DNA from: Octopus vulgaris
Lineage: Eukaryota
NCBI GenBank assembly: GCA_951406725.2
Contig: OX597828.1
Location: forward strand, 7,564,001 to 7,628,000
DNA: 64,000 bases
Direction: 5' to 3'
In this document: positions 32,373 to 33,985 of the stretch, in pieces
How the letters are laid out: each line of letters opens with the position of its first letter
How positions within the stretch are numbered: position 1 is the first letter of the stretch
Position numbers and translations under genes: made by a program
The notes under the pieces: model-generated
Databases searched by the model: none
Told to the model about the DNA's origin: nothing
Seen by the model: the letters and a program-made list of their open reading frames with translations, nothing else

Positions 32373-33200
32373 CAACATCAGACACTGCTTGACGACAGAT
32401 ATTGGATTTTTCTTCCCGGTTACCTAGCGAAACCAAAAGGTTAAGTACTAGGGTCGTTTTTTAAGATTTCATTTTCGAAGAAACTCTTTAAGGTAGTGTT
32501 CTAGTATGGCCGCAGTTCAATGGCAACAGCAAGTAGAAGAGTGGTTCATACGTATGTGTATGCCTAAGCGTACGTACGTACTTACAAACATACATACATA
32601 ATGAGAAGCCCTTTCTATTTCGTTGATAAATTAAAATCATTGTGTTGATCAAGCTAAGCCAACATTTGAAGGCTAGAATATTCTGCTTCTGTCTGCAGGT
32701 AAGACAGTAAAAAAAGCCAGTTTTAGGCAGGTATCAAGTAAAACCTGTTTATTTCGTAGTCTTGAAGGCCAGCAGCATAAGACAGCTACTTCCGTATGCG
32801 GCTCCTTGTGTTCCTTTTGCCAAGAGGCGGATAAGTTAAAATAATTACTTTCAAGTATTCTTTTACAGCTGCGAATTCTGTGTCATAGTTATGTTCAAAA
32901 AATTCCACTCCAGAAAGCACCGTAAATTCGTATTCTCCGTGTTTCTATTCTAAGCAACTGGGCTATCATGGGAAAGTATTCAGGCTTCAGTGTGTCTTGT
33001 TACATTTGTACCATAGGCTCAGGAGTGGCTGTGTGGTAGGTAGCTTGCTTACCAACCATATGGTTCTGGGTTCAGTCTTATTGCGTGGCACCTTGGGCAA
33101 GTGTCTTCTACTATAGCCTCGGGCCGACCAAAGCCTTACGAGTGGATTTGGTAGACGGAAACTGAAAGAAGACCATCGTGTATATATATATATATTAAAT

Positions 33201-33538
33201 TAAAGACCCCCTTCGGTCATGAATGACCATGGGATTGCACCTAGAAAGTTACCCTCCTAGACACAAGTCCGGGCAAGGTTGTTTATGGAAGACCAGCAGT
33301 CGCCCATGCATACCAGCCTCCCCTCTCCACGCCACCAGTGTTATCCAAGGGAAAGACAAAGGTCGATACAGCTTGGCACCAGTGACGTCGCAACTCATTT
33401 CTACAGCTGAGTGAACTGGAGCAACGTGAAATAAAGTGCTTTGCTCAAGAACACAACACGCAGCCCGGTCCGGGATTCGAGCTCACAAACTCACGATCGT
33501 AAGCTCGACGCTCTAACCACTGAGCCATGCGCCTTCAC
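33201..33538 (-). mobile_element. SINE family D (tRNA head plus CORE-like domain), full length
   Basis: Minus strand: GTGAAGGCGCATGGCTCAGTGG...GCTCGAATCC...GTGTTCTTGAGCAAAGCACTTTATTTCACGTTGCTCCAGTTCACTCAGCTGTAGAAATGAGT. Confidence 0.85.
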
Positions 33539-33551
33539 ATAGGGAAAGACG

Positions 33552-33622
33552 TTCCCATGCCGGGAATCGAACCCGGGCCTCCTGGGTGAAAGCCAGGAAT
33601 CCTAACCACTAGACCACATGGG

Positions 33623-33623
<1 letters not shown>
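33552..33623 (-). tRNA. tRNA-Glu (anticodon TTC), intact 72-nt cloverleaf
   Basis: TCCCATG TGGTCTAGTGGTTAGGATT CCTGG CT-TTC-AC CCAGG AGGC CCGGG TTCGATT CCCGG CATGGGA A. Acceptor, anticodon and T stems are fully paired; closely resembles metazoan tRNA-Glu-TTC. Confidence 0.96.
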
Positions 33624-33668
<45 letters not shown>

Positions 33669-33985
33669 TTATATATATTTATTTATATATATTTATATTT
33701 ATATTTATATGTGTGTGTATGTTTGTGTGTCTGTTTGTCCCCCCCCCCCCAACATCGCTTGACAAGCGATGCTGGTGTATTTACGTCCGCGTAACTTAGC
33801 GGTTCGGCAAAAAGAGACCGATAGAATAAGTACTAGGCTTCCAAAGAATAAGTCCTGGGGTCGATTTGCTCGACTAAAGGCGGTGCTCCAGCATGGCCGC
33901 AGTCAAATGACTGAAACAAGTAAAAGAATAAAAAAAGAATATAAATCCATAAATACATCGTTCACAGCCTCAGAAAGCAAGCAAC

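Follow-up and report, generated by a model that had tools for sequence, protein, structure and literature searches.

The U6-Mon-1 chimeras of platypus, the U6-AnolisSINE2 chimeras of the anole and the U6/L1 chimeras all carry a Pol III small RNA in sense orientation, 5′ of an element copied by a LINE reverse transcriptase, and in genomes with stringent LINEs U6 is described as being copied only as chimeras, including those with the SINEs Mon-1 and AnolisSINE2 (PMC4476161). In human, tRNA/LINE-1 chimeras are described at 21 loci, where the tRNA, mostly an antisense half produced by twin priming, is joined 5′ of the retroelement in one insertion (PMC13174262). For PittSINE, a switch from TguSINE1 RNA to tRNA-Asp during reverse transcription has been proposed, by which the old head was replaced with a fresh tRNA head and a family arose (PMC5729268). 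Tailless and pre-tRNA retropseudogenes have no CCA or poly(A) and come from processed or unprocessed RNA, the tailless ones being 3′-truncated, made by L1 and bordered by duplications of their own (PMC5322556). Finally, dimeric or complex SINEs such as Alu, B1-dID and Twin consist of two small-RNA-derived units placed head to tail in less than 1 kb (PMC3531059, PMC13023118), and dimeric families count at least 100 dispersed copies (PMC3531059).

We analysed a window of 64,000 nucleotides of Octopus vulgaris DNA (contig OX597828.1, positions 7,564,001 to 7,628,000), in which a tRNA-Glu, a 13-nt spacer and a SINE that we call SINE-D lie together inside another SINE, SINE-A. The locus is a probable chimeric retrocopy of the class already described. 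As in the U6-SINE chimeras, the small RNA sits 5′ of the SINE and in sense orientation relative to it, but here the passenger is a whole pre-tRNA with its trailer, the SINE is complete, so that two Pol III promoters stand in tandem, and no target-site duplication is readable. It shares with the human tRNA/LINE-1 chimeras the tRNA joined 5′ of a retroelement, whereas the octopus tRNA is full length and in sense, with a SINE as partner. Compared to PittSINE, the tRNA head was added before the old one instead of replacing it, and no family is shown; compared to tailless retropseudogenes, the tRNA is complete and abuts a SINE. The unit does have the form of a dimeric SINE (tRNA-related head, SINE body and tail, 423 nt), but one copy is known, with an unaltered tRNA as the left unit. 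The combined tRNA and SINE-D unit was found once in the 64 kb and 0 times in a metagenome scan, against a threshold of at least 100 dispersed copies for a dimeric SINE family, which leaves unsupported the nascent dimeric SINE put forward by an earlier, sequence-only reading of this DNA. No report of the tRNA/SINE joint, or of such chimeras in octopus, was found in the full-text literature (subscription papers being mostly outside this scope, and supplements excluded); the locus tables in the supplements of PMC13174262 could include full-length sense tRNA cases.

ARAGORN places a tRNA-Glu(TTC), the sole tRNA of the window, at 33551-33623, and Rfam RF00005 is matched at 33552-33623 over the full model (68.5 bits, E 8.3e-13, no non-standard pair flagged). 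This was the only Rfam match to reach gathering level; 10 more at the locus all scored below it, and other RNA families were rejected on that basis. According to both programs, the cloverleaf is complete, with a TTC anticodon and intact A and B boxes. We annotate an intact tRNA gene copy at 33552..33623 on the minus strand, as the sequence-only reading had done, beginning at mature base 1 and without CCA. It is not 3′-truncated, being complete through the discriminator and followed by a trailer. Immediately 5′ lies an AT-rich microsatellite (33624..33710; 33625-33710 according to TRF), which is the centre of the host SINE-A. The earlier statement that (TA)n runs directly into base 1, with no unique 5′ flank, was thus correct but for a single extra T (33624) between the microsatellite and base 1 (33623, minus strand). 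The 5′ end coincides with mature base 1 within 1-2 nt and has no unique leader, and a leader of 1-3 A/T nucleotides may be hidden in the AT repeat. No T4+ terminator is close by: the next T4+ run is a T6 at 32902, 650 nt past the tRNA. Two other origins of the tRNA were discarded. It is not a duplicated SINE-D head, as it is a canonical Glu tRNA whereas the tRNA-like head of SINE-D is different and degenerate, nor a native old tRNA gene, as it lies within a young SINE-A. No protein gene context was found: the 126 ORFs of at least 90 aa are mostly repeat-derived, and 4 that were tested had no Pfam match.

The SINE-D copy occupies 33201..33538 on the minus strand and is made of a tRNA-derived head, a body and two 3′ hairpins; the contig loose ends and depth mark it as a member of a very high-copy family. 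In the contigs of three public runs, the family ends at 33538/33539 and at 33201/33204. Since these ends coincide with those of the copy, the copy is full length, which confirms an earlier claim, and the spacer is not family sequence. Other SINE-D copies run on into a short pyrimidine-rich tail in the contigs; here the element is followed by a 5-nt degenerate tail remnant and the short (AT)n of the host centre (33181-33195), both within 33181..33200. The 3′ 65 nt fold with a z of −2.5, and the body carries T3AT3 at 33435-33429. With its spacer, the tRNA and SINE-D form a unit of 423 nt (33623-33201, below 1 kb) flanked on both sides by (AT)n, in which a target-site duplication of the whole unit is unreadable. 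Relative to the unique flank, the summed contig depth was about 1e5x for SINE-D and about 700-1,200x for the tRNA bin, values that are not a copy number. An exact scan with a SINE-D 26-mer gave 0 matches in each of the metagenome, genome and viral contigs. The window itself holds a single SINE-D copy, besides a related SINE head at 36598-36690 (minus strand), 70% like SINE-D over 94 nt and likewise placed right after a (TA)n tract. Contigs of runs X3 and X4 connect SINE-D 33538 back to 33398, duplicating the first 141 nt head to tail (joint depth of 1360 in one, 980 plus 181 in the other, for unique DNA at 13.5 and 51); judging from these contigs, the variant with the doubled first 141 nt is a multi-copy, quasi-dimeric subfamily. 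We presume that SINE-A and SINE-D resemble the elements OR1 and OR2. These two are named as octopus CORE-SINEs (PMC4824008, PMC4758252). The repeat content of the window as a whole has an octopus-like appearance.

The host was delimited by blastn and, for its head, by alignment. Its 5′ half (33013..33180, plus strand) is a tRNA-like head with A/B-box-like motifs, reaching to the central microsatellite, and its 3′ half with a degenerate short-repeat tail covers 33711..33941 (plus strand, end approximate). The two halves that had been proposed around the insert were recovered, at 33013-33180 and 33711-about 33941, and are paired as in 18 other copies of the window. As the SINE-A head at 33013 is on the plus strand, the tRNA/SINE-D insert is antisense to its host. 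Pairing started from 24 heads and 26 tail halves and gave 22 rows, of which 3 (heads 17829, 35984, 48610) were removed, their tail being already paired to a nearer head; 13 of the 19 pairs were aligned. Against the leave-one-out majority of the 12 other copies, the focal copy differs at 8 of 143 columns in its 5′ half and 6 of 187 in its 3′ half (Fisher p 0.41), and a short marker of a young subfamily is carried on the 3′ half (33711..33941). The halves being equally young and of the same subfamily, we conclude that a single young SINE-A copy was split, and that the age of the insert corresponds to less than about 4% divergence. A junction between two different SINE-A copies was rejected on the same grounds, subfamily and similar divergence. 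Foreign DNA was present in or beside the centre of 4 of the 18 other SINE-A copies (heads 25335, 26714, 31255, 56515), so the nesting is ordinary and needs no special explanation.

Several other repeats were seen in the window. Two SINE-A copies (9462-9724 and 52281-52546) share an identical central deletion, head position 97 being joined to the tail half, which suggests a subfamily that has this deletion and lacks the microsatellite. Joints from SINE-A 33111, 33127 or 33171 back to 33012-33015, present in runs X3 and X4, point to multi-copy variants with tandemly repeated heads. A dispersed repeat occurs at 24976-25162, 4695-4812, 30657-30770 and 48777-48875, usually beside (TA)n, and one copy splits a SINE-A centre. 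Two of its copies have, at 25089 and 4728 on the minus strand, what we take to be a core motif like that of hammerhead ribozymes, below the Rfam gathering level, and these repeats are possibly Penelope-like relics. Another SINE-A centre holds a palindromic MITE-like insert of 245 nt (26311-26555, arms 76% alike), present as a single copy in the window. An insert at 56101-56420 in a further SINE-A copy is overlapped by an ORF (56173-56679, plus strand) with no Pfam match, the translation of which presumably resembles the C-terminal end of RTE-type LINE proteins.

We next turn to the spacer, 33539..33551 on the minus strand. Its letters are those quoted earlier, with neither CCA nor T4 from 33551 to 33539, and it falls outside the SINE-D family, other copies of which stop matching at 33538/33539 in the contigs of three public runs. 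A T3 is reached 4 nt into the spacer, within a TCTTT of the non-canonical Pol III terminator type, TCT3 giving about 50% termination by human Pol III in vitro (PMC3141230). The spacer is likely a pre-tRNA trailer up to T3, then 6 nt of uncertain origin. No copy of it is present 3′ of SINE-D at the locus. RTE-type target-site duplications are given as 7-15 bp (PMC6007223), and the missing second spacer argues against SINE-D having landed alone with a duplication of that size. An exact-pattern scan of metagenome contigs with the tRNA 3′ end and 7 trailer nucleotides gave 0 matches. A fold-back hairpin between the spacer and the acceptor strand in the RNA was also considered and discarded, the acceptor stem having a pairing probability of about 1.0.

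Eight alignment comparisons and an exact-match test were applied to the spacer, and three sources overlap in the same letters. First, 33547-33536 repeats the tRNA 5′ junction (33625-33615) in 11 of 12 letters, a score found in 491 of 50,000 composition-keeping shuffles and 29 of 25,402 window 13-mers; tRNA nucleotides 1-12 by themselves are matched weakly, at 9 of 10 letters (1,827 of 50,000 shuffles). Second, the left part of the spacer matches the SINE-D family 3′ terminus, its tail end being read from contig loose ends, in 10 of 11 letters (2,053 of 100,000 shuffles, 185 of 126,996 window 13-mers, and 95 of 4,027 pyrimidine-rich 13-mers). Third, 10 exact letters are shared with the SINE-D interior at 33357-33348 (9 of 9,772 window 13-mers; by shuffling, 24 of 20,000 exact and 137 of 10,000 with gaps allowed). 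Each of these likenesses has a p of about 0.01-0.02 before correction, and none decides the origin of the spacer.

Each of the first two likenesses can be read in favour of an alternative. The match to the SINE-D 3′ terminus is expected if the tail annealed to its target. In this alternative, SINE-D would have landed 12-13 nt downstream of a genuine tRNA-Glu gene at a source locus, the spacer being the left target-site duplication. A joint Pol III transcript of tRNA and SINE would then have been trimmed by RNase P and copied by a LINE through the SINE-D tail, a 5′ transduction by read-through. This scheme accounts for all 13 spacer nucleotides as genomic, and 12-13 nt fits the RTE-type duplication length (PMC6007223). 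There is no T4 within 650 nt, and many human tRNA genes are described as having no T4 within 50 bp and giving long read-through precursors (PMC3141230). Transcription through the source locus is also feasible on the side of SINE-D: T3AT3-type signals terminate human Pol III only partly (PMC3141230), and since SINE-D itself contains T3AT3, the Pol III of this organism probably passes T3-type signals, including the TCT3 of the spacer. However, the 3′ microhomology reported in animals is 1-2 nt, not 10 (PMC6007223), the T3 found 4 nt past the tRNA resembles a natural precursor end, and RNase Z would tend to sever the tRNA from such a transcript. Neither a second copy of the junction, in the metagenome scan or among the contig pieces listed, nor a published case, in the full-text literature, was found. 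We regard this origin as somewhat unlikely.

The repeat of the tRNA 5′ junction leads to the second alternative, two insertions at one hotspot. SINE-D would have entered (TA)n first, and a pre-tRNA, primed by its 3′ U's at the SINE 5′ junction, would have followed, its 12-nt target-site duplication being merged into the tRNA 5′ end by microhomology. The 11/12 direct repeat does bracket the tRNA and 4 nt, and it begins at two T's upstream of base 1, which explains the extra T. Its 12 nt are of RTE-type length (PMC6007223), tailless tRNA retrocopies are described as priming on 2-18 nt of target complementarity (PMC5322556), and SINE-A centres often receive inserts (4 of 18). Against it, about 7 non-host nucleotides must have pre-existed before SINE-D and, by chance, have resembled the tRNA 5′ end; the direct repeat reaches a p of only about 0.01 among several comparisons; and stand-alone small-RNA copies are reported to be rare where LINEs are stringent (PMC4476161). 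Two insertions are, in our estimate, unlikely.

With the order, orientation and ends of its parts established, and its host recognised as one young SINE-A copy, the insert is tentatively best explained by a joint arrival of tRNA, spacer and SINE-D, a U-ended, 5′-processed pre-tRNA having been joined to SINE-D RNA in one reverse-transcription event, a reading to which we give a little less than even confidence. The RNA origin of the tRNA copy is a strong inference: nothing in a DNA capture would make the copied segment start just at tRNA base 1 and finish with the SINE tail. The copy has a mature 5′ end, lacks CCA and runs through a short trailer to TTT, as does the usual precursor once RNase P has cut and RNase Z has not; the 5′ end is most often the first to be processed, and the 3′ poly(U) is bound by La (PMC3866640). 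In favour of a single event, we count the tRNA being in the orientation of SINE-D, as expected from a template switch or a ligation, the equal youth of both host halves, the spacer being unduplicated after SINE-D, the restriction of U6 copying to chimeras that is described where LINEs are stringent (PMC4476161), and the 11/12 repeat of the tRNA 5′ junction. On the other side, the joint runs 6 nt beyond the T run (5′ extra nucleotides are reported in about 12% of full-length Alu, PMC2912911), the match to tRNA nucleotides 1-12 is weak, the SINE-D tail and interior matching equally well, the target-site duplication of the whole unit is unreadable in (AT)n, and the 21 human tRNA/L1 loci, unlike this one, mostly carry tRNA halves in antisense (PMC13174262). 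Neither a source gene with this trailer, nor an empty site, nor an independent read of the junction was found in the metagenome scan and among the contig pieces listed.

Under this single-event reading, the SINE-D 3′ tail would have primed at a nick in (TA)n, and a LINE reverse transcriptase would have copied SINE-D RNA to base 1. It would then have jumped to a pre-tRNA-Glu with a trailer ending in UUU, unless the two RNAs had been ligated earlier, with about 6 extra nucleotides at the joint. These might come from tRNA nucleotides 1-6, through the GTG common to tRNA nucleotides 7-9 and SINE-D nucleotides 1-3; once nucleotides 1-6 had been copied, the folded pre-tRNA would, speculatively, present its own 3′ trailer right beside them. 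Alternatively, the 6 nucleotides might be untemplated. The cDNA would finally have been completed at tRNA base 1 and joined to (TA)n. As to the jump, the sequence-only reading had held that U6-L1 chimeras arise by template switching; this is one of the two accepted routes, RNA ligation being the other (PMC13174262). Its pre-tRNA/SINE chimeric retrocopy stands as the best reading, given the start at base 1, the gene-type trailer without CCA, the common orientation and the SINE-A split as one copy, with a read-through copy and two insertions as rivals.

Public sequencing runs were searched as well. Of the 24 runs listed, 20 contain part of 32450-33624, and at least half of the sampled words are present in 9, which come from three organisms; the top run reaches 0.96 of the 118 words and is possibly the source sample. 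Four of the 24 were compared in detail, three as contigs and X22 as raw reads, the small-share runs X19 and X20 being left out. The unique flank was found in organisms A, B and C with 1, 5 and 3 differences over 545, 586 and 293 nt respectively, in contigs that stop at 32994, 33035 and 32742, short of the insert; that of organism B enters the SINE-A head by 23 nt, for a bridging threshold of 31 nt. Among the contig pieces listed (8 per run, 24 in total, all at least 61 nt long, of more than 223,000), none spans 33530-33560, a sample too small to weigh for or against the junction, which in this scope is known from the window alone. None of the contigs listed links the unique flank to SINE-D. 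Two contigs have tRNA-Glu copies that agree with this one in the first 2 letters of the trailer, an agreement explained by chance and by selection for length. Raw reads of X22 gave 10 matches out of 12.9 million, none on the tRNA body, too few to inform.

These contigs bear on a DNA-level origin, in which repair or recombination at a fragile (TA)n caught a genomic tRNA and SINE-D, or in which the assembly went wrong through the (TA)n tracts. AT repeats are indeed present at both ends, no contig piece listed links the flank to SINE-D or spans the tRNA/SINE joint, and the top run, with 0.96 of 118 words, may itself be the source sample. A capture does not account, however, for boundaries that coincide with tRNA base 1 and the SINE-D tail, and the host halves belong to the same young subfamily and are similarly diverged. 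Regarding mis-assembly, the (AT)n on the SINE-D side is just 15 nt long, and the tRNA/SINE joint offers no repeat for mis-joining. We hold an origin at the DNA level to be improbable.

Concerning activity, the tRNA copy has an intact promoter and no strong terminator, and from these features it most likely stays silent or adds a minor tRNA gene to the existing ones, rather than founding a family of elements. Its transcription is possible, given the intact A/B boxes and the TA-rich DNA upstream. Unless halted at weak signals, the transcript would traverse SINE-D, then the SINE-A head in antisense, and reach 32902; the idea that Pol III could read through into the SINE is in that sense plausible, the first T4 being 650 nt away. 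A normal tRNA could be freed by processing of the ends, as the acceptor stem of the extended RNA is predicted to stay paired. A particular stability of the fused RNA was rejected (z −1.96). A bolder scenario is a working tRNA gene obtained by SINE hitch-hiking: with the promoter of the copy kept, (TA)n would act as an upstream TATA-like element, Pol III would continue into SINE-D, RNase Z would free mature tRNA-Glu and a SINE RNA, and the locus or its source would be a strong new master founding a tRNA+SINE dimer family that spreads tRNA genes. We hold this to be very improbable.

The insert is likely a one-off copying accident, and nothing shows spread. As a single copy, it adds one example to a described class, in an unusual form, a whole tRNA in sense orientation with a complete SINE. 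The way in which animal tRNA genes reach new sites, and SINEs new heads, is mostly deduced from families that are already old; a fusion of pre-tRNA and SINE that is still young and undamaged captures the step itself, here in an invertebrate.
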